From Pelagomonas calceolata (Eukaryota), in contig CAKKNE010000006.1 of assembly GCA_918797485.1 (NCBI GenBank), positions 248,001 to 312,000 on the forward strand: a DNA stretch of 64,000 nucleotides. The letters run 5' to 3'. Positions 1 to 51,900 of this stretch are shown here, piece after piece (within the stretch, counting starts at the first letter, position 1; the number at the start of each line of letters is the position of its first letter). The notes beneath the pieces are model-generated. The model saw nothing but the letters and a program-made list of their open reading frames with translations. It had not been told where the DNA came from and made no database searches. Made by a program: the position numbers and the translations under genes.

Positions 1-860
1 AGGCGACGTACAGCGGCGTCTGGCCGTCCTTGTCCGCCCGGTCGACCTTCGCGCCGTTATCTAGCAGCAGCCGCGCCGCGTCGACGTGGCCGTACCTGCA
101 GGCGACGTACAGCGGCGTCTGGCCGTCCTTGTCCGCCCGGTCGACCTTCGCGCCGTTATCTAGCAGCAGCCGCGCCGCGTCGACGTGGCCGTTCTCGCAG
201 GCGGCGTACAGCGGCGTCGCGCCGTCCTTCGTCGCCCGATCGACCTCCGCGCCTTTGTCCAGCAGCAGCCGCGCCGCGTCGACGAGGCCGTTCGCACAGG
301 CGGTCCATAGCGGCGTAACACCATTCTCCGTCGCCCGATCGACCTCCGCGCCTTTGTCCAGCAACAGCCGCGCCGCGTCGACGTGGCCCTCAGCGCAGGC
401 GACAAACAGCGGCGTCTGACCGTACTTGTCCGCCCGATTGACGTCCGCGCCTTTATCTAACAACAGCCGCGCCGCGTCGACGTGGCCGTTGTCGCAGGCG
501 ACGAGCAGCGGCGTCAATCTGTCCTCATCCGCCCGGTCGACCTTCGCGCCGTTATCTAGCAAAAGCCGCGCCGCGTCGACATGGCCGTTCTGGCAGGCGG
601 CATACAGTGGCGTCCGGCCGTCCTTCGTCGCCCGGCCGACCTTCGCGCCGTTGTCCAGCAGCAGCCGCGCTGCGTCGACGTGGCCCTTCTCGCAGGCGGC
701 GTACAGCGGCGTCCTGCCTTTCTGCCATCCCTCTGACACCGCCCGATCGACCGCTGCGCCGTTGTCCAGCAATAGCCGCGCCGCGTCGACGTGGCCGTTC
801 TTGCAGGCGTTGTACAGCGGCGTCCATCCGTCCTTGTCCGCCCGGTCGACCTCCGCGCCT
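1..860 (-). repeat. Tandem ~99-bp ankyrin-coding repeats (about 8-9 units visible)
   Basis: cagcagccgcgccgcgtcgacgtggcc recurs about every 99 bp; one unit carries a 12-nt insertion near 720. Confidence 0.93.
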
Positions 861-2869
861 TTGGCAGCGCGCCGCACCTCTTCCTCGCGCTGCCGCCGTG
901 CCTCCTCCTCCTCTTCCTCGCGAGCGGCTTTCGTCGCGGCGGCGCGGCGCGCGTCCTCATCATCATTTTCGATCCGAGACCCGTCGTCGAGCGCTTCGAG
1001 AAGCCCTGCGTTGCCGCCGAGGGCCCTCGTCAAATTGTAAATCCGGTGCGCCGAGCCCTTCACCTCGAGGAGCCGCGCGAGCGACAGTTGCAGCTCGCCC
1101 ACGAAGCCGGCGATCTCCACGTTCACGAGCACGTCGCGATAGCCCGAGTTCTCGACCGGCCTATTGATGCGATCCTTGGCGCGGCGGATCAAGAGATCGC
1201 CGCTCCTACCGAGCGCAAGAAGCTGAGCGAGGGCTTGCCCGCAGCTCACGAGGTCGTCGAACACGCCCGTCGCCCGCACCACGTCCACGACCCGTGCCAC
1301 GTCGTCGTCATAGTCGTCGTTCGCCTTGGCGCGAATCCGATCCTCTAGTTTCAGGGGCCCTTTCTTGTACGTGCCGCCGGCCTCCTCGACGATCGGCCGC
1401 AGCGTCGCGTGGAAGGCGTCGCTCGCATCTCCCGCGCGTGCGAGCAGCTCCTCCGCACTAGCAATGGCCACGGGCTGCCTCACGATCCCGTCAGGGGGCG
1501 CGAACGTCTCTTCGAGCTCGGCGCTCGCCATCTTGAGTTCGTCGATCGCCTCGCGTTCGGCACCGCGGACGCAGTCGTCCCAAGCCCTCGCATACGCGTC
1601 GGAGTCCTTCCGCTGTTCTTCGGCGAGGAGCTTGTGGACCTTGGCGAGCTCGGCCTCCGCCCGCGCCGCCCTGTCGAGTGCTCTGTCGTCGCGGGGCGCC
1701 GTGGATGGCGCGGCGACGGCTGCCTTCAGCAGCCAGTGGTCGAGGTGCGCCTCGACATTTTCGCTGCTGTTGAACTGCGGCCGAGGGGCCGGGTCGACGG
1801 TCAAGCAGCGGCTCGCCAGATCCAGGAGCTCCGGCGCGGCGACGCTGGCCGCGTCGGGGAGGGGCGGCGGCGGCGGCGGCACGCCGCTTGCGGCTCGGGC
1901 GACCAGCTCTTTGGGCGCGAGCTCGTCCCAGGGGGCCTTCCCAGAGAGGAGCTCAAGGAGCACGCTTCCGTAGGACCACGCATCACATTTTGTGGGCTGG
2001 ACGTCGGCTTCGTCGCGCAGCAGCTCCGGCGCCGCGTAGCGAGAGCCCGCGGCCGCGCGCTGGGTGGCGGCCGCGACGCCGCCCCCGAAATCCGAGAGCT
2101 TGCAGTGAACCGTCGACCGGTCCGCCAGGAGCACGTTCTCGGGGTGGAGACCGAGGTGTGAGATACCGTGCTGGTGAAGGAAGTCGAGGCCCAGCGCCAC
2201 GTCGCGGGCCGCGCGGACCGCGTCGAGGCGGTTTCTGCCGAGACCGTCGCGAATGCCCGCTGCCAGCGACGCCTTCGCCAGCTCCATGACGACGTTGAGC
2301 TCGCCGTCGACCGACGCTACGCCGTACATCTCCACGACGTTGGGATTCGGCAGCTCGCGCAGCGCGAAGAGGTCCGCAGGCGCCACGCGCGCGCGCGCGT
2401 CCGCGTCGCCCCGCGCCTTCGGCCGTTTAAGCGCGACGCGCATCTCTTCGCGGCGCGACCGCTGCCAGGTCGCTGCGCTGACCACGGTGCCGAAGCGGCC
2501 TTCGCCGACCGTCCGTCGATCTCGCGCCACCTTCTCGCCGTCGAGGCGCGGCGCATCCGCGGTCACGGCCGCGAGTTCCGGCGGCTCGACGTAGACCCGC
2601 GTGCGATCGCGGAAGCTGTCGTCGAGGATCTCGTCGGCGCGCGCGCGTAGGTGCCCGAGGGCCGAGACCACCTTCAGCTTGTCGAGCCGCTTCGGCGCGA
2701 CTTCGTCCACGTCCGCCTCTTCGAGCAGGAGCGCCGTCGCCGCGTCGAGCTCGTTCTCCCGGATGAGATCCACGACCACGGACGGCTTGCCGGCCTTCTC
2801 CGCGGCCTCGGCGAGGTCCTCCCAGCCCAGGTTCTGCACGCTGACCGTCGCTCCCCCGCCTTTCCCCAT
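1..2869 (-). CDS. Multidomain protein (partial, runs off window): SAM-like N-terminus, pseudokinase, RelA/SpoT-like nucleotidyltransferase, ankyrin repeat array
   Basis: Manual translation from the ATG at 2869 (MGKGGGATVSVQNLGWEDL...) found no stop through base 1, so >=956 aa; the ORF is absent from the track. Kinase motifs: VGEGRFGTV, VALK, HLGLHPENVLL, DFG, YAAPE, DAWSYG. RSH-like motifs: PLKLEDRIRAK, DVVRATG, KDRINRP..SGYRDVLVN, GELQL, AHRIY. These are followed by GxTPLYxACxxGHVDAARLLLDxGA repeats. Confidence 0.88.
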   Translation of the reverse strand, partial: MGKGGGATVSVQNLGWEDLAEAAEKAGKPSVVVDLIRENELDAATALLLEEADVDEVAPKRLDKLKVVSALGHLRARADEILDDSFRDRTRVYVEPPELAAVTADAPRLDGEKVARDRRTVGEGRFGTVVSAATWQRSRREEMRVALKRPKARGDADARARVAPADLFALRELPNPNVVEMYGVASVDGELNVVMELAKASLAAGIRDGLGRNRLDAVRAARDVALGLDFLHQHGISHLGLHPENVLLADRSTVHCKLSDFGGGVAAATQRAAAGSRYAAPELLRDEADVQPTKCDAWSYGSVLLELLSGKAPWDELAPKELVARAASGVPPPPPPLPDAASVAAPELLDLASRCLTVDPAPRPQFNSSENVEAHLDHWLLKAAVAAPSTAPRDDRALDRAARAEAELAKVHKLLAEEQRKDSDAYARAWDDCVRGAEREAIDELKMASAELEETFAPPDGIVRQPVAIASAEELLARAGDASDAFHATLRPIVEEAGGTYKKGPLKLEDRIRAKANDDYDDDVARVVDVVRATGVFDDLVSCGQALAQLLALGRSGDLLIRRAKDRINRPVENSGYRDVLVNVEIAGFVGELQLSLARLLEVKGSAHRIYNLTRALGGNAGLLEALDDGSRIENDDEDARRAAATKAAREEEEEEARRQREEEVRRAAKGAEVDRADKDGWTPLYNACKNGHVDAARLLLDNGAAVDRAVSEGWQKGRTPLYAACEKGHVDAARLLLDNGAKVGRATKDGRTPLYAACQNGHVDAARLLLDNGAKVDRADEDRLTPLLVACDNGHVDAARLLLDKGADVNRADKYGQTPLFVACAEGHVDAARLLLDKGAEVDRATENGVTPLWTACANGLVDAARLLLDKGAEVDRATKDGATPLYAACENGHVDAARLLLDNGAKVDRADKDGQTPLYVACRYGHVDAARLLLDNGAKVDRADKDGQTPLYVA

Positions 2870-3352
2870 TTTTATTGCTCTCCTCGCTGGATAGCTGCCT
2901 AATTTGTCATTCGGCTGCTCTCGCGGCTGTAGGTAGATGCCTGTGTTGAGTGAGGGCAGCCCACAGCGCCCGGTCCCACATGCAGAGGGTGGCAAGCAAA
3001 ACTCGGTTGTGGACCAAGGCGTTACGGAAACGCCAGTCTAGGAGTCAGTAGGGAGTCGTGACGAATAGGGCTCCCATTAGAAACTTAAGCGGGTTTTGTC
3101 TCTAAAAATTATACCCGGCCGCGTGGGCCGGCCCGCGGCGCCCAACCATCAAGTATCTGCGGTGGGGCGACGTCTACGTCGCGGGCGCGCTCGCGGAGCT
3201 CGAGCTCGGGCCGTCGGCGCGGAACATCGCCGGGGCAAGGCTTGCGGCAGAAAGAATCGTCGAGGGGGCGTTGTTGAAGGGGCGTGTGTAAGTTGTATTT
3301 CTGTTACATATCTAACGGGCTAGTCCTAGCGGCCGCACTGTCTGGGTGCGCG

Positions 3353-5074
3353 TTAACACCCACCGCCACACCCACCGCCACACCCACCGTCACACCCACC
3401 GTCACACCCACCGTCACACCGCGCCAGACATAGTAGCGGGCATAGTAGTACCTGAAGTAGTACCCCGGCACCGGCGGCTAGTCCCCCGGCACAGGCGGCG
3501 ACGTAAATACCGCCACATCCTCGACGAGCTGCGCATAGTGAGCATCTTACAGTCGGGCAGCAAAAACAGCCGGAACGAAACCCGTCTGCGCTCGTCCAGT
3601 CATGCGTATTTCCGTGGGCGCAGCGCGTCGTGACTTCAAAAGTATTGCCGTGCTTACGCGCCAAGTGAAGGTCCCAGCATAGAGGAATAGGAATACAACC
3701 AGGAAGAATATGAATAGGCAGGAACATGATCGTCCAGCCCTTGGCTTGGTAGGAATTGCTGTCATGAGATATGATTTTTTCGCATGAGAAAGGGACAAAT
3801 GGAAAGCACGGAAAGCAGGTACAAAAGTTTCCAGCGAACGACCGCGCGTCGGGGAAAGCATGGCTTGGAGGACTCGAATGGCCCTCGGATAGACGTCCCT
3901 CGGGCTCCGGCACCGTCTCCACGCCCATCAGCGGGCCCGACGGCGCCCGCACCTCGCGCGTGCCGCCGGTCGGCGCCGGTCGCGCGGCCCGGGCGACGGC
4001 GAAGCTCAGGACGCGCCCGGGCCCCGCGGCGGCCGCCTGGAGCTCTCGAACGATGTCGTGGCCGTACGTATTCGGACCGCAGACGAATAACGATCGGCCC
4101 GGCGCTCGGATGCTGACGAGGCGGTTCCCGACGTCGACGCGGAACGCGAGGGGGCTCGAATGCGAGACTCGGACGACGCGGTGCGAGTTGCCGACGTCGA
4201 AGTGGAGCCCTAGCCGCCCCGCGGGGACCTCGATGTCGAGGGACGCTTCCAGGCGCATCGCCTGCACCGGCACCTCCTCGTCTGTGGAACCTGGTAGTGC
4301 CGGCACGCGGATCGTGAACGCCTCGCCCGCCGCGAGGCCCGCCGGGATGGGCGCGCGGATGCTGCGGCCGTCGGGGAGGGTCGTCGTCACCACGTCGCCC
4401 GCGGACGCGCCGGCCGGGCAGCTCACGCGCACGCGCAGGTCCGTGGCCGCGGCGTCGGCGTCGGGACGCGCGTCGGGAGCGTCGGGCGCCGCCGCGCGCG
4501 ACGGATCGGGCGCCGCCGCGGGTGGCGGCGGCCCCCCGAGCAGGATCGCGCGGCAGCGCGCGGCCCGCTCCTCGCTCGTGCCGCTCGTCTCCGCGACGCC
4601 GAGCTGGGCGCAGGCCGCGGCGAGGACTTGCACGTTCGTCCCCGTGAGGCGCAGGTGCGTCCGCAGGTCGTCGCACATGGTGGCAAAGGTCGAGACCTCG
4701 GGCGGCGGCGGCGGCGGCGGCCGATGGTCGGGCGCCGGCGCCCACACATAAAGCTTGTCGCCCGGCGCGCGGTAGCAGTGCGCGAGTTTGACCTGGTGGT
4801 CGAAGCGCTTCAGCACCGCGACCGAGCCGCAGAGCGACAGCACCGAGTAGCCCCCGGCGCGGGCGAGGTCCTTGAGGCCCTCGATCACATGATCCGCGCG
4901 CCAGTTCGGGATGTATTTGAGGTCCTTCTCCTGGTCCACGACGGCCACGTTAAAACCGAGGTGCTCGGTCCAGGCGCCTCCCTCTAATGCCGCGCCGTCA
5001 CCGATCTCGCGCCAGCGGAGCTCCGCGCGCAGGCGCTCGTCCTCTTCTTGCAGGCGCTCTAGGTCCGTCGCCAT
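3353..5074 (-). CDS. Hypothetical modular protein with a PDZ-like domain and Cys-rich C-terminus
   Basis: 573-aa ORF. IEVPAGRLGLHF...VVRVSHSSPLAFRVDVGNRLVSI resembles PDZ; contains a VSCPAGASAGD...IPAGLAAGEAFTIRVP module; ends in (GGCD/GGCG)n. Confidence 0.65.
   Translation of the reverse strand: MATDLERLQEEDERLRAELRWREIGDGAALEGGAWTEHLGFNVAVVDQEKDLKYIPNWRADHVIEGLKDLARAGGYSVLSLCGSVAVLKRFDHQVKLAHCYRAPGDKLYVWAPAPDHRPPPPPPPEVSTFATMCDDLRTHLRLTGTNVQVLAAACAQLGVAETSGTSEERAARCRAILLGGPPPPAAAPDPSRAAAPDAPDARPDADAAATDLRVRVSCPAGASAGDVVTTTLPDGRSIRAPIPAGLAAGEAFTIRVPALPGSTDEEVPVQAMRLEASLDIEVPAGRLGLHFDVGNSHRVVRVSHSSPLAFRVDVGNRLVSIRAPGRSLFVCGPNTYGHDIVRELQAAAAGPGRVLSFAVARAARPAPTGGTREVRAPSGPLMGVETVPEPEGRLSEGHSSPPSHAFPDARSFAGNFCTCFPCFPFVPFSCEKIISHDSNSYQAKGWTIMFLPIHILPGCIPIPLCWDLHLARKHGNTFEVTTRCAHGNTHDWTSADGFRSGCFCCPTVRCSLCAARRGCGGIYVAACAGGLAAGAGVLLQVLLCPLLCLARCDGGCDGGCDGGCGGGCGGGC
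3356..3420. repeat. 12-bp tandem repeat (cacccaccgyca) encoding GGCD/GGCG
   Basis: About 5 copies visible. Confidence 0.85.
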
Positions 5075-5393
5075 GATGGGCAGCCCCCGCTTTGCCAGCG
5101 CGACTTAAATATATATCTTTGCTTTGCTTAGAGCTAGGCCGCCTAGCTACCCGGCCGCCGCGGGGGCTGCGTGACCGGACGCCCGCCCCGCCCTTTATTT
5201 TTGCGCAGATCTGCAGATTTGCGCGCGGGTCTTTCACAGCTCCCGTCTCCCGTCGCACGCAACAGGTGCTGTGGAGGCACCAGGCAGCCGCAGAGGTTGG
5301 TTCCGACGTCGCAAGGTGCTGTGGAGGCCCGGGGCCGGAAGCAGCAATTGATTCCGAAGTTGGGTGTGCCAGAGGGGCTGCCCAGCGCGCGCC

Positions 5394-8890: not shown

Positions 8891-11800
8891 TCACGAGACA
8901 AGCTCCGCCTCAAGCGCCCTCGACGCCATCGCCTTCTCCCGCACGAGCTCCGGCGCCGTCGCCGTTTTGAGCGCGTCGACCGCGACGCCCAGCGCCCCGC
9001 GCGCGGCACTCCGCACCGAAGAAAGCGAAAAGGGCGCCGGCCCGCGCCTTTCTTCAAACGCCGTCGCGTTCTGCGAATCGGCCAGCAAAAGCCTTAAACG
9101 TTCGAGCCAGGCGCTCGCCGTCGCCGTCTCGAGGACTTCTGAAGAAGGCAGCGGCTTTAGTAATTTCTCCGTCAGCGTCGACAAGACGGCCGAGTTATCC
9201 CCCTCGAGCCACGCGAGCGTGTCGTACCAGCGCAAACAAGTCACGTGTAAAACGTGGTCCATGGACCGCGTCCTTCTCTGTAGAGCGCCCTCGAGCCACA
9301 GGTCATAATCCGAGGCGAGCCCCCACTTGTATTCATTATCATCGAACGCGGCGGCGCGCTTCAGTAATGATAACGGGGGCAGGGCCAGGCCCGGGTCCCG
9401 CCAGGCGTCGCCTAGCAACTCCAAGGCTCTTTGACGCGTCTCCTTGGCTACGGGCTTCGAGAGCTCGTCATAATTTGTTCTGTCGTAGTCGAGACCCCGC
9501 ATATATAAGACGAGCAGCTCGCCGCAGTCGCGCCACCAGGCATTTAACGCTCGCGACGCGGCCGCGCGCTCGTACTCCCGCCGCCTCACGAAGACGTCCT
9601 CGTATCGCGAGGCCATCGCATCATCCCCCAGCCGCTCCAGAAATCTCTTCGTGACTCTCCTTTGTTGCGAACACCATTCGGTAGCATCCTGGCTGAGGTC
9701 GTAGGGCCTAGCGCGTGGATCGTTCGACGCTAGTTGGTCGCCGTCGTCCGATCTGGCGAGCGTCGGGTTGCCGTCCGCTTCTTGAGCGATGGCCCGGAGC
9801 TCGTCCTCCGAAACGACAGAGTAGCCATACTTGATGCAGAACGCGTCGTAGATGCCCACGCCGTCCATGAAATATTTACCTTGGTCTTTCTGGTCCTCCG
9901 CGACCACGGGCGCGATGTAGTCCATCACTGAAGATGCGACCCTACCTTGCTTGCGCTTCGTCGCGTCGTGGATGTCCTCGAGCTTATGGAGTGCCGAGGC
10001 CCGGAAGTTGTGCCTCAACCCAAGCGTGTGGCCCACCTCGTGCGCGACGACGTCGACCAACCCGGCCTCGACAAACGTCTTGGAGTCGACGTCGGCGTCG
10101 CCGCGCGCGGTGAGCCCAACAGCTAAGCCCTCTAACACTTCATGTGCCGACCGGTGGCAGTGGCGGTGCGCGTCGTGGCCGTGGCCGTGGTCGTGGTCGT
10201 GATCATGGCCCTGCCCGCCGTGGGCATGTCCCACGGGCGCGTGGTCGCCGCGGTCGTGGCGCCCGGACGGGTCGTGGCCGATCGAGGCCTCGTCCAACCA
10301 GCTCCCCGTGAACGCGCGGATCCAGCCCTCGCCGAACACGATGTTCGCGTAGAGGATCTCGCCCGTCCGGGCATCCACGACGGACGGGCCGATCGCCAAT
10401 CCTAGGTCGGGGTAGGGCAGCCAAGTGATCGAGGAAAACCGCACGTCCCCGGGATCATACTCCGCCGGCCAATCAGCATCATCCGGTTCCACGACTTTGA
10501 TGGCTTCCTCGAAGCCAATCGCTTCAAAAGCTGGCTGCCAAGTCAAGACGCCGCGCTTGATGGCTTCCCTCAAAGGTTGTGGTACGGTCGGGTCGAGGTG
10601 GTACGTGATTGGTACCCTGGGTTTGCAGAGTAGTCTCCGACCGTGAGCCAATCGACGTTCGGTGCAGTCCTCATCTTTTTCTAGACGCCTCCTGTGTGGA
10701 AACCAGTGCGTCGGGTGCACCGACAATTCTTCACTAAGTCATTTCTTCGCGATGACGCGGCCGTCCTGGCTCGGTCGAGCGGCGAGGAACCGGCATCGCC
10801 ACGCCATCGAGCAGGCGTCGCGTCGATGGCGTGGAGGACGACGCGACGATTCAGCACGAACGCGCCGTAAAATCTTGATTTCCACACAGGCCGTCGCCGG
10901 TTTATCAAGTTCACTCTCCGGTCCGCATCACTATAGGAAGCATTCGGCGCGTCCGTGTGGAAATCTCTCGGGAGGGGTCCGAGCTGCTCGTACGTCGTCC
11001 CGAAGAAGCCCACCCTATCATCAGCGCGCCTCGGCGTCATCGGCTCGTCGGGCAACAACGCTAAAGAGTAGGCTATTTCTACAGCCGTCGGGTCGTTGGC
11101 GTACACATCTTCCACATCCCACAATGAACACGCGACGACGAACTGCACATTTCGGGGAAACGCCGAGACAGATCGCAATTCGAGCTCGCCGTGGCAGCGC
11201 TTCGGAATATCTACAATCGCGGCGCCTTCGTTCAGGATCCAGCTCCAGGCGTTGTATACGACTGCGCCGTCGCCGCAGTCGCCCGCCTTCGGCAGCGTCG
11301 CGACCCAGCCCACGGCACCCAGACCGTCCTCGGCGGCCGCCGCGTACGTGTCCGTCACCGGCCTTACACTTAGGGGTGGCCGCGTGACGCGCGCGTCGCC
11401 GCCGTGTGCTGATTCTCTCAATGTGAAATAGCTGTCCTCGACGCCGACGCCGTAGTGGGCAAAGCCCGCGTCGCGGCCGGTTGTCCTTCGTGTGGTAGCT
11501 ATCACCGTGAACGGCGCGGAGAGCGTTTCGTTGGGGATCGTCAGGAGCAGCGACTGGCTCGCGTAGTCGGCGTGCGCGTGCCACGTCGCGTTCGTCGCGT
11601 TTCTAGCCGCGCAGGCTTGCTTGGCCGGGTCCGGCGGTGGTGGCGGAGGGGTCAGTAAGGTAGCCAGCGTGAGCTGCAGCATTTCTAGAGTGGTCGCGAG
11701 CGACGGCTGCCGCGGCGTCGCGGCGACGGCGTAGGCGATGAGTGCGACGACGACCGCGGCGCCCGACGCGCCGCAGCACGCGCGGAGCCAGCGGCGTTTC

Positions 11801-11907
11801 CTTTGCGGTGGTGGCATGGGTCTGCTGCCGTTGCGCGACGGGCTCGACGGGCCCATCAGTTCGATGCCGTCCTCCTCCGAGTGGTGTACTGGGTTGTACT
11901 GCACCAT
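8891..11907 (-). CDS. Membrane-anchored metzincin zinc metalloprotease, DUF5117/EcxA-like (exons 11907-10898, 10691-8891; ~936 aa)
   Basis: HEVGHTLGLRHNF zinc motif and SVMDY Met-turn; MTPRRADDRVGFF and the spliced INRRRLEK...PITYHLD; N-terminal TM helix. One intron joins two track ORFs in frame. Confidence 0.87.
10692..10897 (-). mobile_element. Introner intron (GC-AG, 206 nt)
   Basis: TIRs CTGTGTGGAAA / TTTCCACACAG; internal hairpin CCACGCCATCGA-N12-TCGATGGCGTGG; degenerate 8-bp TSD GCGACGGC vs GAGGCGTC. Removal restores the frame; a GC donor at 10891 is also in phase. Confidence 0.85.
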
Positions 11908-13897: not shown

Positions 13898-16604
13898 ATG
13901 AGCCGCCGCCCCCACCCCAGCCAGCGCTTCATGGCGCACGCCCAGGACGCGTCGCGCAATGACGTGCTGCAGACGGAGACGAGTAAGAGTTTGAGACAGG
14001 TGCTGCGGGCCGCTCGAGCGACGGGCGCCCTCGCGCTGGCAGGTAGACGGTTGCGAGAACTACCGGTGGAAAGCTACGCCCCGACGCCGGACGATTTGGA
14101 CGAGGGCGAGAAGTTCTGGGAGATCGTCGAGTTGAAATCCTTCGATTGTTCCCACAATAAGTTAGATGAACTGCCTTCGGATTGGCGCGCAATTTCGACG
14201 CTGCGACAATTACGAGTGGCAAGGAACTCTTTAAGTATGCTGCCGGAGGCCCTGCTGTCGGACCTGCCTGCCTTGGAATTGCTCGACGCGGGCGACAACC
14301 GGCTGCGGAGTTTACCTCCTGTACCCGCGGCGGGTTGTGCGCTCAAGACGTTGTTGGCACCTAGAAACGCGCTAGAAAAGCTAGAAAGGTGGAATATTTG
14401 TGAGTGTTTGACGCTCGAAACCCTGTCGCTATCTGATAATGAGCTGATTAAAGTCCTGCCGTCACTGCCGAAGCCGTTGCGAGCTTTAGATGTTGAAAAT
14501 TGTAGTTTACAACACCTCCAGCCCACCCAGTTCCTCGAGACGCTCGCGGCCGCTAGGAACAAGCTGAAGGGCGTGGACGTGGGCGGCCTGCAAAAACTGA
14601 AATATTTGGACCTGCGCCAGAACGAGTTGCAAGGCTCTTTACAACTCCCGTCCTTACCCGCGCTGGCCGAGTTATTCATAGGACACAACCAGCTGCAGCA
14701 CTTCGACTTGAAGCCGTCGCCATTAATAGCGACGATCGACGTCTCTTCCAACAGTCTACAAAAGCTCCCCGAGAGTCTGGGCCGATGTATCAATCTCAGA
14801 GCCCTCGACGCGTCGAACAACGACCTCGCGGAGTTGCCCTGTTCCCTCGGCACCTTACCGAAGCTGCAAAGGATCGCGCTGGACGGCAATCCGTTGCGAA
14901 GCGTGCGGCGCGACGTGATAGAACGCGGCTGCGAGGCCATCAAGGCGTTTTTACGGACTAGGGCAGCGACGCCGGCCGAGAAGACCAGTGACGATGACTT
15001 CGACCCCCTCGCGCTGGCGAATAGGGTGCGGGACCCCGTATGCGTGCGGCGTCTTTTTTTTACTTCGGATGCCGAGCTCTGCTGCGATGCCATCGACGCG
15101 AGTCGCATCGATGGCGTATCACCGATAAACCCCGCAGGACGCGCGCGGCGTCCTGAACCTCGCCGGCAAACATTTACGACATTGGCCGCTCGATCGGGAC
15201 GTCTGCGCGAAGGTGCGCGAATCCCTAGAACAGGACGAGGGCCTAGACGCCTACGTCGACGACGCCCAAAAAGCCTCAAGGACGGCGCGCGTCAAGAGTA
15301 TTGATATCTCAGAGAACGCCCTGTCCGAATTACCGGAGGCGTCGTGTCTGCTGGCTCTAGGTGATAGTTTGCGAGAGCTGAAGTGCGCGCGGAATCGCCT
15401 ACGCCAACCACCTTTGCTGAGTTTGGCCAATGTCCCGCTCAAGGTGTTGGACGCCTCGCGCAACGAAATTACCAATGATGACGCCGACACGCCGCTGCCG
15501 GACGCGTGTGCCCTCGCGAGGAATCTGTCCGAGCTCGACATGAGCGGCAACCGGTTGATACGCATTCCCCGATCTTTATTTGGCTTGCAGGCTTTGAGAA
15601 GTGTCACCCTGGCTCGGAATGAACTCTCGGGCGACTTAGGCCGGGGCTGGGCTTCACTATTAGCGCTCGAGACGCTGAACCTGGCCGACAACCGACTAGG
15701 AGCTCTAGGTGATGTTCATAAAGCCCCAGTCCTCCGAACGTTGGATCTGGGCAACAATTGTTTGCGGAGCGTCCCGCCCGAGTTGGGATTATGCGACTGC
15801 CTGCGCTCCTTGATCCTGCACGGCAACCCGCAGCGCGCCATCCGCGCGGAAACGCTGCCAAAGGATACGCTCAAAGTACTAGCACGGCTGCGCGACCGGT
15901 TACCCATGGATGTCGTCGAGCGACACATGAAGCGGGAGGAAGATCTACAGTCAATAGAGGACTCGCACGAGTCTTTTGACGAAAGGTATACCTCCCCGCC
16001 GCCGCCGACGGGGCCGCCGCCGAAAACGGGGTATGGGAGCACGCCACCGCCCCCAGATGGCCCGCCACCCGTCCTATCGGACTACGCGCCTCCTTCCGCG
16101 GCGGCGCGCCTATCTTCGGCCGTCGACAATAGAGCATGTCGAGCGATGGCCTGGTCGCCGGCACCGGGCCAGGGCCGCGCGATGGCCTGGAGCCCCCAGG
16201 ACGGCCAGACGATCGAGCGAAAGAAGAAGCCTCTACCAAGGGAGAAGAAACGGAAACCTTTCGAGTCCGTGCGAGCGCCGCGGCCGGTCTTATCATTACC
16301 GTCGCCGGTCCTAGGGAAAGGCGTGCTACCGCGCCAGTCGCCTCGGACAGAGGAGAAGAAGGAGCTGAAACCCAGCAATCGGCCGCCCGCGATTGGAAGG
16401 TCGTCCAAACCGTCGATCGCGCCCGAGGACACCATTACGTTGAAAGGTCTCAACGAGCGCGTGTCTTCCTTGGATGCTCGTTTAACCGAAGATGGGGCGT
16501 CGCTGTCGCAAGCGAAAGTCTACGCCCTGAAGAAGCAGCTGGCGCGCGCGAAGGCCGATAGAATTCGGTTCGAGCGGCAGCTCGCGGCGGAGCCGGACAC
16601 GTAA
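13898..16604 (+). CDS. Leucine-rich repeat protein, LRRC40-like (2 exons, ~860 aa) with a Pro-rich/coiled C-terminus
   Basis: ARATGALALAGRRLRELP, EKFWE, many LxxLxLxxNxL repeats, LDGNPLRSVRRDVI. A phase-0 intron ending at 15137 joins the two track ORFs. Confidence 0.88.
15026..15137 (+). other. Intron (donor at 15026 or 15038) with a GCCATCGA...TCGATGGC core
   Basis: Acceptor CCCGCAG at 15137 is in frame with the downstream LRR exon; T-rich tract. Confidence 0.72.
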
Positions 16605-42198: not shown

Positions 42199-43581
42199 TT
42201 ATTTATGCCCAGTGTGCGGCGTGGATACCCACCGGCGAATCCGCGATTCGGCGACGCGTGCCTCGGAATCCTCGTCGTCGTATAGGATGTCGTACAAGCG
42301 GTCGCCGCGAATAGCTGTGATCTTGCCGGTGAACCACTGGTTGCCGCTGCGCCACCGCACCTCGACGCGCTGGTTAACCGCGAATGCGGCATTGTAGGAT
42401 GGGCGCTCTCTCGCTGCCGCTTCCCTCGCGCGGGCGGCCTCGCGGCGCGCCGCCTCGTCGCGCTCCCTCGCGCGGCGCGCCGCCTCGTCGCGCTCCCTCG
42501 CGCGGGCGGCCTCGCGGCGCGCCGCCTCGTCGCGCGCGGCGCGGAGCTCGGCGCGGGCCCGCTCCGCCTCGCGCTGCGACCGCTCGACGGCGGCGCGCCG
42601 CTCGCGCTCCTCGGCCGCCTCCCGCCGCGACCGCTCGACGGCCTCGCGCCGCGCCGCCGCGTCCTCGTCTTCTCGCGCCGCTTCCCGCCGCTGCCGCGTC
42701 GCGTCGCGGTCCTGCGCCTCCTCCGTAGGGCGAGGAGCAGCGCCGACACTTTGTCCATTGACGAGCAGGGCGCCGCCCGGGATGCTCCCGAAGCATCCCT
42801 CGCAGAGGGCGTGGCCGCAGGGCAGGGCCACGACGGGTTCCGCCGTCTCTAAGCAGACGGGACAGTGGGCCGAGGCGAAGACTCTGTTCCCACAGGCGCG
42901 CCGTGGGGGCTGCGTGCGGCAGATGGGGCAGGCGAGGACCCGATCGCGAGTCTGAAACCGCACCTCATGTGAACCCACAATTCGCCCAGACCTGCCCACA
43001 AAACTCCGGTCGCCCACGGGGTTGATGTTGAAGACGTAGTCTTCTCCCGGCCGGAGCTTTGGGAAACTGATGTTCAATGTGTTCGCTGTGTGTGTGACGG
43101 CCGTGGGCAGCAACCGCTCATCATTGCCGCGATAGTCCGCGATAGTGCACGGTATGCAATTCGCAATTGGAGGGACCAGGGCTCCCACGTTGATATACGA
43201 GTTGCCTTTTGCAGGGTCTGAGGACTCGGCGTTCGTGCAAAATAGAATGGAGACTAAAGTTCCATCTCCTGCTTCATTCTCGGACGGGACATCCCTCAGA
43301 TCTGCTCCATTTACGGTGATTCTCTTTATCCACTGATGGTAACGGGCCCTGGGAGGTCCACCTCCTAACCGGAGGACCAGGTAGAGCGTCGATTCCATGT
43401 GGATGTTGTAGTCACTCAGCGTGCGGCCGTCCTCGAGCTGTCTGCCGGCGTAGATGAGGCGAAGCTGGTCCGGAGGAACGCCCCTGTACCGGATCTTCTG
43501 CTTGACGCTGTCGATCGCGTCGCTCGGCTCGACGTCGAGCGTGAACGTCTCGCCAATCAGGGTCTTGACGAAGATCTGCAT
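42199..43581 (-). CDS. Ubiquitin-like / Ig-like / RING-type Zn finger / charged helical repeat / Tudor(Agenet) protein, copy B
   Basis: MQIFVKTL...LVLRLGG; CPICR...CPVC...[20 protein letters not shown] repeats; [31 protein letters not shown]. Confidence 0.88.
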
Positions 43582-43955
43582 ATCGGGAAGCCAAGGAAAG
43601 CGGAACTAGTCCCGTGCCGCGCTGCGTCGCAGGTCCGCTTTGATGATGAGGCCAGCCTGTACTGGTGCAGCGGCAGCAGCGAACGGCTGCCTCGCGAATA
43701 GGTGAATGCAGGCGGGGCTGCCCCCAAAGCGGCGGTGAGCAGCAGCACGTCGCGATCCAGCAGCTCTCCGGATTTGCTAGTGTCTTACATGCCGCTAGCG
43801 CGTAATTAGTTCGCAAGGAATCCCGGCTTTACTCGCAGCGCAAAGTCGTCATGAATCGCAGATTCTATAAGCATTGCTCTAAGTAACCGTACGAGCAGCC
43901 CAAAGGAATTCTCGCACTTCTGCATGGTGCCCGTGGTGTTATTAGTAACTTATTA

Positions 43956-45413
43956 CTACCCAGTGTGCGGCGTGGATACCCACCGGCGAATCCGCGATTC
44001 GGCGACGCGTGCCTCGGAATCCTCGTCGTCGTATAGGATGTCGTACAAGCGGTCGCCGCGAATAGCTGTGATCTTGCCGGTGAACCACTGGTTGCCGCCG
44101 CGCGACCGCACCTCGACGCGCTGGTTAACCGCGAATGCGGCATTGTAGGATGGGCGCTCTCTCGCTGCCGCTTCCCTCGCGCGGGCGGCCTCGCGGCGCG
44201 CCGCCTCGTCGCGCTCCCTCGCGCGGCGCGCCGCCTCGTCGCGCTCCCTCGCGCGGCGCGCCGCCTCGTCGCGCTCCCTCGCGCGGGCGGCCTCGCGGCG
44301 CGCCGCCTCGTCGCGCTCCCTCGCGCGGGCAGCCTCGCGGCGCGCCGCCTCGTCGCGCGCGGCGCGGAGCTCGGCGCGGGCCCGCTCCGCCTCGCGCCGC
44401 GACCGCTCGACGGCCTCGCGCCGCGCCGCCGCGTCCTCGTCTTCTCGCGCCGCTTCCCGCCGCTGCCGCGTCGCGTCGCGGTCCTGCGCCTCCTCCGTAG
44501 GGCGAGGAGTAGCGCCGACACTTTGTCCATTGACGAGCAGGGCGCCGCCCGGGATGCTCCCGAAGCAGGCCTCGCAGAGGGCGTGGCCGCAGGGCAGGGC
44601 CACGACGGGTTCCGCCGTCTCGAGGCAGACCGGACATTTCGCCGATGCGAAGACTCTGTTCCCACAGGCGCGGCGTGGAGGCTGCGTGCGGCAGATCGGA
44701 CAAGCGAGGACCCGATCGCGAGTCTGAAACCGCACCGCATGTCGATCCCGGAAGCATTCACCAGACCTGCCCACACAACTCCCTCTGCCCAAGGTAGCGA
44801 TCCTGAAGATGTAGTACTCTCCCGGCCGAAGCTTCGGGAATCTGATATTCAATGTGTTCGCTGTGTGTGTGAATGCCGTGGGCAGCAACGCCAGGACACG
44901 AGAGCCGTTAGCCAGGACACATTCCCTTCGTCTGTCATCGCCCCCACGACATGTGATAGCGAACGCCTCTACATTCGACGATTCATTCCTAATTGGAGGG
45001 ATCAGGGCGGCCACGTTTATATACGAGTTGCCTTTTGCAGGGTCTGAGGACTCGGCGTTCGTGCAAAATAGAATGGAAACTAAAGTTCCATCTCCTGCTT
45101 CATTCTCGAACGGGACATCTGACGTCCTCAGATCTGCTCCATTTACGGCGATGCTCCGTATCCACTGATGGTAATACGGGCCAGGAGGTGCTCCTCCTAG
45201 CCGGAGCACCAGGTGGAGCGTCGATTCCATGTGGATGTCGTAGTCACTCAGAGTGCGGCCGTCCTCGAGCTGCCTGCCGTAGATGAGGCGCTGCTCGTCA
45301 GGAGGAATGCCCTCCTTGTCCTGGATCTTCAGCCTCACGCTGTCGATCGTCTCGGACGGCTCGACGTCGAGCGTGATCGTCTTGCCCGTCGGGGTCTTGA
45401 CGAAAATCTGCAT
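43956..45413 (-). CDS. Ubl-RING-Tudor protein, copy C (divergent N-terminal half)
   Basis: Same architecture; Ubl closer to true ubiquitin ([14 protein letters not shown]...[10 protein letters not shown]); more EAARR repeats. Confidence 0.88.
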
Positions 45414-48914: not shown

Positions 48915-51900
48915 ATGGACGGCTACGACTCGCCGCGGGTCCAGTACGCCAGCCCCCGGCGCCAGTTGTCGAGGAGCGGCAAGAAGAACACCATCGCCCG
49001 GGACTTGGATACGCGGACGCCGCGCTACTCGCCTCCGCCGCCTTCCACACCACCGCCCGCGTCGCCCGCCCGACGCTCACCATCACCGGAAGCGCCGTCC
49101 TACACAAGAAGAAGACCGTCGCCGCCGCCCTTCGGCTCGCCGGACACATTACGAAGCCAATACACGGTGCGGACGGGCGGTAGTGCGGCCGCGTGGGAAC
49201 GGGCTTTACATCGACGAGTGGCGGCTCTCGAACACCAGTTGAAGGCAGAAGTCGCGGCCAACGACGAACTTAGGAGGCGCGCCGCGGGCGACAATGTCGG
49301 TGATGATGATAGATCATTAGCAGCAGCCCAGGCCGCGTGGCGGAGGGAACGAAGGGTCTTGGAGAGACAGCTCCACGCGGCTCGAGCGGCGGCCGCCGAC
49401 GCCGTCTCGCGCAAACCCCATCCTACAGTAATGGAGGACGACGATTCCGTCGACCCCGCCGCGCTCGTCGGCCGGGCCGCGGATGCGCTGGACCGAGCGT
49501 CGTCGCTGCCGTCGCCCGTCCCCAAGCTCCGACGCAAGTTGAAAGCGTGGGCCCTGCGGTCGGCCTTCTCCGTGGCGTCTCGCGTACCTTATAGAGCGGT
49601 CGCGCGGCGGTTTGCCTTCTGGCGCGGCGCTGCTACGGTGCCTCCATTATTGGAGGGAGACGACCGCACGTTACGGGTTGTGGCAAGGGTCATGCGGCGC
49701 GTTTTGAAAGATTGGCTCCACGATAGTATGGAGGCGGCGTTCTGCGACTGGGTCGCTGTTGTGAATCGATCGCAAGGTGCCGATTGGGTGACGCGCGTCT
49801 TCTCGACTCACTTCACGCGACGAGGCTTTAGGAGGTGGCTCCGCGCCGCCGAGGCCTCCGTGCAGTCACGGCGCCTCGCCGAACTGACGAACGCGAGCGA
49901 CGTTTCTGGAAAGCGCCAGGCCCACGAGCTCGCGAAGTACGAAAAGGAGCTGCGCGAGGCCCGCGCTCGTCACGCCCTCGAATTGGAGAAGGCCGAGGCG
50001 CGACGAGCGGAAGCCGTCGAGGAATGTGCCGCGCAATTCAGGCAGCGCAACGCCGAGCAGCTCGAGGAGGCCGAGGACCGCTACCAGAGGTTAATTGACG
50101 AGGCCTGGCAGGCGACCGAGCGGTCGCGGGCGCAGGGCGTCGAGAGCGTCGGCGCGGTGACGCGGCACTTTGCCAATGCGGCTCTAGGCCGCTGCTTCGC
50201 CCAGAAGCCTCAACGATGCCGACTGGTCTTCTTCCGGCGCTGGGCCCACAACACGCGCTGCGACGCGCGGTGGAACGTCGCCACGAGGCGCCTGCGCCGG
50301 ACCATAGGAAGGTGGTCCTCGCGCCAAAAGTCGCAAGCGTGGCAGACGTGGGTCGACGTCGTCGAGGACGAACGGCGCCGGGTCGAGCGCGAACGCGACT
50401 CGGCGCGACGGCTCCGGTCGACCGTCGGACGCTGGTGTGAGCGCTTTTTAGCAAGAGCCTGGCGTGCGTGGATTGAGGTAGTGGAGTACGAAACTCTACT
50501 CGCTGCGAACGAGGCCGCCTCCGCGCGACGCCTCCGTAGCTGTATTCAACATTGGAGCCTGCGGAAGACGGCGAAAGCCTGGCGCGCCTGGACGGAAGCT
50601 GTTGAGGAATCAGCGCGGGGCGACCGTCGTTTGGCGCTGTCGGCGCGCGACCTGCGGCTCTGCGTGAAACGCTGGGTCTGTCGCGAAAGGGCGGCGGCGT
50701 TCCGGACCTGGCGCCGGTTCCTGGACATACAGAGACGCCTCGAGCGATGTTTGAAACGGTGCCTGAACCGCCACCTGGCGATGGGTCTGTCCAAGTGGAC
50801 GAGCCACTGCCACTTCACGAAGCGCACGCGGGAGCGCCAGGCCATGGCGTTTCGGACGCTGGAGCGCTGCGTCGGGCGGCTGTTGCATGGGCACCAGGCC
50901 GAGGCCTTCGACACGTGGCTCGCAGCCGCGGAGGCGCTGAGCGCCGCGGACGCCCTCCAGGAGCAGTCGACGTTCTCGCTCGAGAAATGTTTAAGGAAGT
51001 GGCTGCAACGCTTGACGTCGAGAGCCTTCCGCACGTGGACGGCCGAGTCGCAGCGCATTCTACACCGGAAGCGCGCCATGCTGCGGGCTTCCCGAAGATG
51101 CGTGCTGCTATGGGTCCGGGGGGAAGTTGCCAAGGCGTTCCGCCGCTGGTCCGGGCGCGCCTCGCGGCTCATGATCTGCGCGGACGCTTCCATGCGGATC
51201 GAGCGCATCATGATGCGGGCGCTGCGGCGTCTGGTCGCGACGGCGCGGGCGCGCGCCTTCGCCGCATTTCGGGAGGTAGCTTCGAAAAGCCGAGCCCTCG
51301 ACCACCTTGCCACAACAAGGCGCCTCGCCCTCGAGAAGTGTCTGAGGCGGTGGACGAAACGATCGTTAGCAAGGGGCCTCGAGACGTGGTCCACGACGAC
51401 GACCTTCTTCCACAACCTGCGGAGGTGCGTCCTCCGTATCCTAAGGAGACGGCTCGCCACCTCATTCGTCACCTGGTCGGGCGAGAGCTTTCATTTAAGA
51501 AGACGCGAGACAATGTTGAGAGACGCGGCGAAGGGTCTAAGACGGTGCTTGACGCTCTGGCTCCGCCGGAAGCGCGCGCGCGCGTATCGGAAGTGGAGCG
51601 GCCGCTGCTCTCTTATCAGATTAAGGAGCGACGCCATGAAACGCTTGGACCGCGTGAGACGAAGGTGTTTGCAAAGGATACGCCATGCGACTTTATTAAG
51701 AGCGTTGAACACGTGGGTCCATGGGAGGGACGTCTACCGCTTCCTGGAAGGCCATTCCATCAAAGCAACCTCTGCCCTACGAAGGGTACTCAAGAGATGG
51801 CTCCACCGCGAGAAGGCGAAAGCATTAGAGGCCTGGTTTAGGACCGTATCCTTCATCCGAGGCATGGAGCGCGTCGTCGCGCGGATTGTACATCGGCTAG

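Follow-up and report, generated by a model that had tools for sequence, protein, structure and literature searches.

A RelA/SpoT-superfamily domain joined to a pseudokinase and ankyrin repeats in Pelagomonas calceolata, and its counterpart in a probable giant virus

Introduction

Alarmone chemistry in eukaryotes is thought of as a plastid matter, and the immunity of marine phytoplankton against giant viruses is poorly understood. In a 64,000-nucleotide stretch of the Pelagomonas calceolata genome (hereafter the window; assembly GCA_918797485.1, contig CAKKNE010000006.1, positions 248,001 to 312,000 of the forward strand), a minus-strand open reading frame (ORF) at the window edge places a RelA/SpoT-type domain between a pseudokinase and an array of ankyrin repeats. 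This raises the question of what such an enzyme makes, and to what end, when it is built into a multidomain protein. The domain belongs to the RelA/SpoT superfamily and is nearest to Tas1/Apk1 and to phage polyvalent-protein domains, Tas1 being an ATP-draining bacterial (p)ppApp toxin. An earlier note, made from the letters of the window, had proposed a cytosolic sensor-effector analogous to bacterial CapRel defence. Considered with its relatives and its viral counterpart, the gene may encode an NLR-like intracellular immune sensor-effector armed with a Tas1-like enzyme, a reading to which we give a probability of about 0.45.

The gene and its transcript

The ORF is an intact, intron-free, transcribed nuclear gene with the order SAM-like domain, pseudokinase, brace, synthetase and ankyrin array. 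It runs on the minus strand from 2869 to 2 as a single frame of 956 visible amino acids with no stop and leaves the window with its 3' end open, as the earlier note had said, and the motifs quoted there were all found (GPLK at 1360-1349, VDVVR at 1288-1274, AKDR at 1180-1169, GYRDVL at 1144-1127, GELQ at 1099-1088 and KGSAHRIY within 1063-1037). Its GC content is about 70%, with third-position GC of 0.73-0.92 across all its parts. The gene is present once in the window, among ordinary nuclear and housekeeping genes such as Sedlin, Prp19, Pescadillo and COQ5.

PolyA reads (four runs from one sample) lie along the ORF in nearly all cases in one orientation, as expected for minus-strand RNA in most stranded libraries, at low depth and with no splice joint seen. 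The longest evidence comes from contigs of presumed RNA runs, so called since their RNA label is a guess by software; metatranscriptome runs with shares below 0.2 were left out. One such contig covers 830-2967 with zero differences, taking in the leader, kinase, enzyme and first ankyrin repeat, and contigs from two other studies cover 830-2162 and 830-1855. The kinase, enzyme and ankyrin parts thus appear to lie on one unbroken transcript and not on the separate ones that would have told against the fusion. Positions 1932-2085 are uncovered in all four polyA runs, of each of which about 6-12% was read; a transcript break at this hole was not accepted. Contigs from three presumed RNA runs end at 2967, 2967 and 2973, where a DNA run continues past, and polyA reads cover 2856-3009, which together hint weakly at a probable 5' untranslated leader of about 100 nucleotides (2870-2973, minus strand). 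The contig that spans the gene (contig 7 of run X1) has, at position 2967, 329 extra letters that do not lie on 780-3100 and could be an upstream exon, read-through or a chimera. In runs of the same organism the kinase-enzyme pair has one paralogue or more. Its DNA is about 87% identical over window 1257-1424, and the contigs concerned, some 3.1 kb long, reach into the kinase region as well.

The synthetase domain

The domain occupies amino acids 455-621 (1007-1507, minus strand) and is best described, from sequence, profile and model, as a RelA/SpoT-fold nucleotide pyrophosphokinase domain of the Tas1/Apk type. Pfam does not see it: PF04607 (RelA_SpoT), the profile that the earlier note had named for the check, gives no match to amino acids 455-625 even at E 10. 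The same profile matches two of 12 family members (best E 0.017) and three of 60 more distant relatives, two of the three above the cut-off. NCBIfam offered nothing useful, PADLOC has no model matching the domain, and tblastn against phages and plasmids returned weak matches only, the best being a Bordetella phage hypothetical protein. A pattern scan of GTDB confirmed none of 600 stretches with patterns that are narrow, bacterial-type relatives turning up in the profile search.

Superfamily membership is instead established by structure and by profiles of the family itself. The AlphaFold2 model of the domain has a predicted local distance difference test score (pLDDT) of 89. Against the Protein Data Bank (PDB), Foldseek places Tas1 (6ox6) first (E 2.7e-7), followed by RelP, RelSeq, an exported small alarmone synthetase (SAS), RelQ and CapRel. 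A structural search of the full library puts RelA/SpoT synthetases in every rank from 1 to 11 (Z 13.3-8.7, root-mean-square deviation 2.9-5.5 Å, 128-150 residues aligned), the top rank superposing at 2.9 Å over 147 residues with Z 13.3 and the first non-member scoring 8.1. Sequence searches point the same way. Tas1 is the first of three PDB matches for the single sequence (E 0.0036) and the best for a 12-row profile (E 8e-6). A 33-row profile yields seven matches, all synthetases, with Tas1 first (2e-16) and next to it YwaC of Bacillus subtilis, the highest-scoring RelP/RelQ-type enzyme (2.5e-6); also among them are the exported Streptomyces synthetase SaEAS (3e-4) and RelP of Staphylococcus aureus (1e-3). 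Among viral structure models the best matches are phage polyvalent proteins (26-30% identity, E 1e-11 to 2e-9).

The comparison with CapRel holds in part. CapRel shares the fold (Z 12.1; FaRel2, another toxic SAS or toxSAS, reaches 7.1), but neither CapRel nor FaRel2 chains are among the seven profile matches. A synthetase that is held inactive and freed by a foreign trigger is likewise a proposed common feature, whereas the regulatory domains differ and the host here is a eukaryote.

Catalytic residues and likely product

The catalytic D and E that the earlier note took to be intact are D529 and E592, and both are kept. All seven catalytic positions (K507, R511, K515, D529, R532, E592 and Q594) are preserved here, and the K-R-K-D-R-E-Q set is complete in 137 of the 152 relatives' rows that cover all seven. 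The fold could nevertheless be catalytically idle, acting as a scaffold or binding a nucleotide, or the ORF could be an assembly chimera. The adjacent kinase is degenerate, Pfam misses the domain and the raw reads of four runs leave 1932-2085 uncovered. That hole, however, rests on a small part of each run, the same architecture recurs in independent assemblies and one contig spans kinase, enzyme and first ankyrin repeat, so that, with the catalytic set so widely kept, this is the least probable of the accounts considered.

Of the residues named for Apk1 (R330, E382 and Q384; PMC12691689), R532, E592 and Q594 are the aligned counterparts under a numbering offset of 21 derived here, which fits four of the five residue numbers printed in that paper (where Q382 is printed). 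The known relatives, Tas1/Apk1 (a Pseudomonas aeruginosa type VI effector, 6ox6) and the MuF-fused Apk2, share with the window domain P-x-K-x3-R-x3-K-x3-DY, D-x-x-R-x-T, E-x-Q without a following Arg and H-x-x-Y-x3-R, and like it have no hydrolase domain. They differ in identity (about 20-24%), in syn3 (GxN there, DxL here) and in setting: Apk1 carries an N-terminal PAAR and Apk2 an N-terminal MuF domain (PMC10083569), whereas the window protein is a eukaryotic nuclear multidomain protein with a pseudokinase, with no PAAR or MuF domain and no adjacent immunity gene seen.

The motifs around the nucleotide sites bear on the product. Those of RelA/SpoT homologues (RSH) are described as SxH in syn3, AVR in syn2 and IR in syn4, and those of Apk enzymes as GxN in syn3 with a syn2 of the RYT type (PMC12226406). 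The window protein reads RAT in syn2 (the Apk RYT type), DVL in syn3 and LS in syn4. Across the family syn2 is RxT or RxS, and the commonest syn4 residue is His (80/148). The guanine-reading SxH occurs in 0 of 160 rows and the RSH-type syn4 Arg in one of 153; the Pro that precedes the first catalytic Lys in Tas1 is present in 128 of 145. The Apk GxN is also absent (0/160), with an Asn two residues further on in 133 of 155 rows, and syn3 takes a family-specific D-x-L form whose Asp is nearly invariant (144/154). Since SxH is missing, ppGpp is an unlikely product. An Apk-like syn2 and syn4 combined with a D-x-L syn3 would therefore make (p)ppApp the most likely product and ppGpp the least likely, with another acceptor possible. 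These motifs are indicative only, because motif swaps alone left the specificity of Apk2 unchanged (PMC12226406). A 2022 review knew of no case in which (p)ppApp had been reported from plants or algae (PMC10107265).

Two other products have to be weighed against this one. The canonical label, a (p)ppGpp synthetase or an enzyme of RelP/RelQ type, does not stand in view of the closer kinship to Tas1/Apk and phage polyvalent domains and the missing SxH. A cytosolic (p)ppGpp synthetase would agree with a fold and catalytic core like those of RelP and RelQ, and with the exported synthetases VpEAS and AaEAS, which make (p)ppGpp and belong to the kind of enzyme covered by an Apk1-homologue survey (PMC12691689); it is very unlikely given the motif counts just described (SxH, syn4 Arg and the Tas1-like Pro). 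Alternatively, the same sensor logic could act on RNA, pyrophosphorylating a 3' end (the CCA of tRNA, the target of CapRel and FaRel2, or a viral RNA) and so blocking translation. The structural match to CapRel, a syn3 Asp unlike that of Apk or RSH enzymes and the fusion of many relatives to a P-loop domain resembling SF1 helicases are in keeping with an RNA target. However, the profile reaches Tas1 at 2e-16 and neither CapRel nor FaRel2, the latter low in the structural ranking as well, and we regard an RNA target as quite improbable.

As to the cellular setting, the earlier note's observations were borne out. Pfam found no HD domain in the visible part of the protein. The best 12-residue hydropathy in amino acids 1-40 is 0.72, that is, no hydrophobic leader, as judged by hydropathy only with no dedicated targeting predictor run. 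Plastid RSH1-4 and the divRel SAS of fungi, Dictyostelium and diatoms share a synthetase fold encoded by a eukaryotic nuclear gene, but the window protein differs from them in motifs and in having no HD, TGS or ACT domain and no such leader. The accessible parts of PMC3153485 and PMC6881373 do not mention kinase, ankyrin or WD40 fusions of this type for RSH or divRel proteins.

The SAM-like domain, the pseudokinase and the brace

The N-terminal part of the protein (amino acids 9-80; 2630-2845, minus strand) is predicted to form a SAM-like five-helix domain. Pfam has no SAM match in this region, the model has a pLDDT of 68, Foldseek lists SAM rows weakly (E 0.13) and the structural Z is about 3. 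A 6-row profile of the N-terminal 70 or so residues, built partly from rows chosen for their SAM-like look, matches the SAM domain of PHC3 at E 6e-4, and 11 of the 16 listed chains are SAM domains; a first profile of four rows was dropped for a spurious match to internalin repeats. These residues are probably a SAM domain, so that the earlier call is supported, if less firmly than the others. Many relatives (P0008, P0012-P0019 and the N-terminus of L002 among them) begin MG-A/S-x-AS, which resembles a myristoylation signal; a loose form of the pattern occurs in 29 of 102 relatives and in none of 36 of the phage/bacterial-type group. The start of the window protein, MGKGGG, is a poorer fit, and membrane anchoring is possible.

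The pseudokinase call was confirmed by a Pfam kinase match at amino acids 118-367 (1769-2518, minus strand; E 2e-32) in which HRD reads HLG. HLG or HLA replaces HRD in all nine rows of the window protein's clade, with loss of the catalytic Asp, which is kept in the catalytic loop of nine of 12 distant kinase rows. Nucleotide binding by the pseudokinase is possible because K148, N245 and DFG remain.

Between pseudokinase and enzyme lies a helical brace (amino acids 405-454; 1508-1657, minus strand) with conserved D422, Y426 and W430, of which D422 and W430 are invariant in a 21-row alignment. A [YF]xxxW motif stands upstream of the domain in 56 of 80 eukaryote-type rows as opposed to none of 30 phage/bacterial-type rows. 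When the pseudokinase (95-385) and the brace with the enzyme (398-625) were predicted as two chains, the contact score was 0.74 while the best of three controls reached 0.01; different runs shared 83% or more of their contacts, with a partner pLDDT of 84 or higher. In calibration, the mark used for such scores is reached by 51 of 78 solved and two of 108 mismatched microbial pairs, and by 39 of 65 solved and two of 126 mismatched eukaryotic pairs. The predicted interface sets kinase residues 172-180, 222-230, 249-255 and 373-385 against brace residues 407-432 and the last helix of the enzyme (599-617), which holds the conserved K604, H608 and Y611. The prediction supports a pseudokinase that is physically coupled to both brace and enzyme.

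Repeat tails and diversity of the family

A charged linker (amino acids 626-668; 866-994, minus strand) separates the enzyme from the ankyrin array (2-865, minus strand), and comparison with close relatives marks it as the point at which ankyrin and WD40 tails are switched. The array has eight complete repeats and the beginning of a ninth, and Pfam reports eight Ank stretches. Seven regular units are 82% identical in DNA with a framework that is nearly fixed. Variation among them is concentrated at six binding-face positions, picked before the test, which we take to be those of designed ankyrin libraries: 14 of the 27 extra residue states fall there (permutation p 0.002), and the ratio of non-synonymous to synonymous change (pN/pS), from six codons in seven repeats, is 1.30 at these positions as against 0.45 elsewhere.

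Five relatives match the window protein at 91-94% identity over brace and enzyme, yet have nothing that resembles its ankyrin tail; four of the five are also 83-87% identical over SAM and kinase. What follows their enzyme instead corresponds to the start of a WD40 array at another locus, L025, where it matches the first exon of the array and the adjoining intron. At L025:3100-3590 and L019:3700-3915 each WD40 repeat occupies one 126-nt exon, with near-identical 56-nt introns between, a layout that is suited to exon shuffling.

The wider family is large. With clusters drawn at 50% identity, a profile search reached 4,536 of them at a limit of E 0.001, or 1,423 at 1e-10, the best 150 of the 4,536 being listed. 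Among 60 longer relatives chosen by hand, 14 have a kinase, two TPR, two LRR and one ARM repeats; in several of 18 near relatives the domain stands together with WD40 repeats and a helicase-like P-loop, and further ARM fusions, along with tandem enzymes, come from 31 metagenome loci. The P-loop domain matches AAA_30/DEAD/SLFN-g3 helicase, and nSTAND weakly in one of 16 (E 3e-4). The relatives named to species in the first searches were only Aureococcus anophagefferens proteins (41-50% identity), and a Guillardia theta relative is labelled 'RelA/SpoT domain-containing' in UniProt. Three loci (L015, L016 and L017) have two synthetase domains in tandem, the second far more divergent. On these sequence comparisons the family appears to behave like a sensor repertoire.

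The viral copy and the origin of the domain

Two metagenome loci, L006 and L007, are gene-dense with 28-29% GC and encode acyl-CoA dehydrogenase, uracil-DNA glycosylase, thioredoxin, isocitrate lyase and cytosine methylase. Six of their neighbouring genes have orthologues at 52-80% on two IMG/VR contigs from giant-virus metagenome-assembled genomes. The two loci are probably giant-virus DNA; on L006 itself no viral hallmark gene came to light. Each carries a patatin gene with a synthetase insert (L006:4587-6020 and L007:74-1507), whereas on the syntenic giant-virus contigs (L033 and L034) patatin is a 252-residue protein without insert. The insert in L006 is about 225 residues long and in frame (amino acids 78-302), and it is 54% identical over 212 residues to window amino acids 410-621, a stretch that takes in the brace (E 5e-70). 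Third-position GC in the insert is 0.32, compared with 0.84 in the window enzyme domain. The insert keeps seven of seven catalytic residues, while the patatin that hosts it has lost its DGG motif. The chimeric gene exists in five full-length variants on 17 contigs of up to 74.8 kb, and because of this an assembly chimera was ruled out as its source.

Trees were built from 160 domain rows of 168 proteins, with 26 short matches dropped and no canonical RSH outgroup. The viral copy falls inside the window protein's clade (nine rows, 100/99; 11 rows, 99/100 in the careful tree) and is placed as sister to the window protein with support 87/93. An approximately unbiased test does not reject host monophyly without the viral copy (p 0.12), and exact nesting is not claimed. 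The in-frame insertion and the presence of the brace lead us to infer a transfer of brace and enzyme from host to virus. Elsewhere, a 363-kb viral contig (L001) carries a relative at 39% identity (L001:3443-5059), and genes neighbouring it share a repeated short motif, possibly a virion-packaging tag.

Beyond this clade, the domain occurs in phage polyvalent proteins with MuF, ddrB-ParB or LPD38 domains and in a protein with an eCIS-core domain. RelA/SpoT domains of polyvalent proteins and polymorphic toxins have been described as conflict effectors (PMC5512222, PMC3482391). They share the GYRD motif with the window family, but are weapons directed at bacteria and have the [YF]xxxW brace in 0 of 30 rows, whereas the window domain resides in a eukaryote and is fused to repeats. 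The quick tree shows a eukaryote-type group of 104 rows and a phage/bacterial-type group of 40 (SH-aLRT 97 and 96), the groups having been drawn after that tree with labels deduced from partner domains. In the careful tree two changes are needed per group and the groups are whole in 44% and 40% of bootstrap trees, so that the split is weak and a single origin and donor are not claimed; what the sequences suggest is affinity to phage and bacterial conflict domains.

Other features of the window

Upstream of the gene, an ORF of 573 residues (3353-5074) has no Pfam match; reads are deep there over 3318-3933 and 4704-5165 but absent from 4396-4549, and the region may comprise two transcription units. 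A short GC-rich element at 5118-5180, single copy in the window, is found on either strand in numerous other transcripts, with hundreds of loose-ended reads. Further along lie bacterial-type Met-zincin DUF5117/DUF4953 ORFs (8891-11907), two LRR ORFs (13898-16604), a tandem pair of ubiquitin-RING genes (42199-45413) and an Arg/Ala/Trp-rich ORF of 4,805 residues without Pfam match (48915-63332), which resembles Sfi1-type centrin-binding repeats.

Discussion

Under the reading favoured here, an immune sensor-effector, the pseudokinase would pack on the brace helix and the last synthetase helix and either keep the enzyme off or couple it to the nucleotide state of the pseudokinase. The ankyrin array, or WD40 in relatives, would bind a foreign or stress ligand, upon which the SAM domains would cluster the protein and the enzyme would be released. 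It would then move pyrophosphate from ATP onto the 3'-hydroxyl of an acceptor, most likely ADP or ATP, giving (p)ppApp or a close analogue. As suggested by Tas1, the product may drain ATP and ADP or act as a signal, and the infected cell may be arrested or killed. A giant virus would have taken up brace and enzyme and would keep the enzyme active, for host shut-off or for interference with the pathway. The sensor-effector idea of the earlier note is strengthened because of the ankyrin/WD40 swap, the binding-face variation, the predicted contact and the viral copy, while the immune role stays an inference.

The plan has precedents, and the suggestion that a cytosolic RelA_SpoT effector would be new to eukaryotes does not hold, since fungal NLRs of this kind were listed in 2014 (PMC4986451). 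The RelA_SpoT-NACHT-WD40 proteins described there carry the RelA_SpoT effector at the N-terminus and have repeats that vary at the surface and are internally similar (criterion 85% over 100 residues; PMC4986451). They share with the window family the joining of a synthetase to an ANK or WD40 receptor, domain reassortment and variable repeats. The window protein differs in that the enzyme directly precedes the repeats, escaping the PF04607 profile by which the fungal cases were defined, and in that a pseudokinase (a helicase-like P-loop in relatives) occupies the place of NACHT or NB-ARC; the two are likened by description only. In MLKL, RNase L and receptor guanylyl cyclases, too, helices link a pseudokinase to a domain that acts as effector or makes a signal, and RNase L has ankyrin repeats as well. 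The likeness is one of analogy only, the effector here having a pyrophosphokinase fold. A search of largely open-access papers found no published description of the kinase-synthetase-repeat family or of the viral copy; earlier mentions may exist in the RSH tables that belong to PMC3153485 and in the lists of Apk1 homologues of PMC12691689. Within that scope, the gene is an undescribed variant of a known idea.

Several observations weigh against an immune sensor-effector. Pfam recognises neither NACHT nor NB-ARC in the protein. Transcription is of low depth, and the cultures in which it was seen have no recorded infection. The halves in the contact prediction are parts of one chain, and their contact indicates architecture and not inhibition. 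A pN/pS of 1.3 over so few codons does not establish positive selection, and internal repeat identity peaks at 84% over 100 residues in the visible part, below the fungal 85%. The sequence of the WD40 tails comes from intron read-through proteins and not from their own DNA, and their bearers may be paralogues and not alleles. As to the enzyme, structural Z ties RelP/RelQ-type enzymes (13.3, 13.1 and 12.4) with Tas1 (12.6), D-V-L in syn3 fits neither the Apk GxN nor the RSH SxH, and Apk1 N370 and K353 have no clear counterpart, so that more than one acceptor is possible. Finally, many relatives consist of an apparently active kinase and the enzyme, without recognised repeats, which fits ordinary signalling.

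This last point leads to an alternative in which the gene encodes a regulated enzyme that produces a second messenger in ordinary responses to stress or nutrients, a cytosolic alarmone in small amounts, and does not kill the cell, much as receptor guanylyl cyclases combine a kinase-like domain, a helical linker and an enzyme producing a nucleotide signal. The order of kinase, brace and enzyme is conserved in distant relatives (the 14 of 60 with a kinase; the catalytic-loop Asp in nine of 12), transcription is low and steady, and the neighbours are housekeeping genes. However, the account leaves the repeat swap at 91-94% identity, the binding-face variation, the sensor-type fusions and the viral copy unexplained, and no HD hydrolase was matched among the 27 other ORFs of the window, although one may be encoded elsewhere in the genome. 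On balance, ordinary signalling seems unlikely, if still to be reckoned with.

A broader picture, which we regard as possible but not probable, is that algae and other protists have a cytosolic, alarmone-based immunity built on a toxin-type pyrophosphokinase taken from phage and bacterial warfare. A switch, either pseudokinase or helicase-like, would restrain the enzyme, and sensors made of ankyrin, WD40, TPR, LRR or ARM repeats, exchangeable and diversifying, would be connected to it. Detection of a giant virus would then lead to (p)ppApp or a new 3'-pyrophosphorylated nucleotide, ATP collapse and aborted infection, and giant viruses would have captured the enzyme in turn. In any case, the gene defines a large family that is mostly missed by Pfam and has an intact toxin-type active site, and the viral copy provides a direct handle on gene exchange between hosts and viruses in the plankton. 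If the toxin-type activity is true, a further nucleotide signal or suicide chemistry would join eukaryotic immunity beside cGAS, OAS and TIR.

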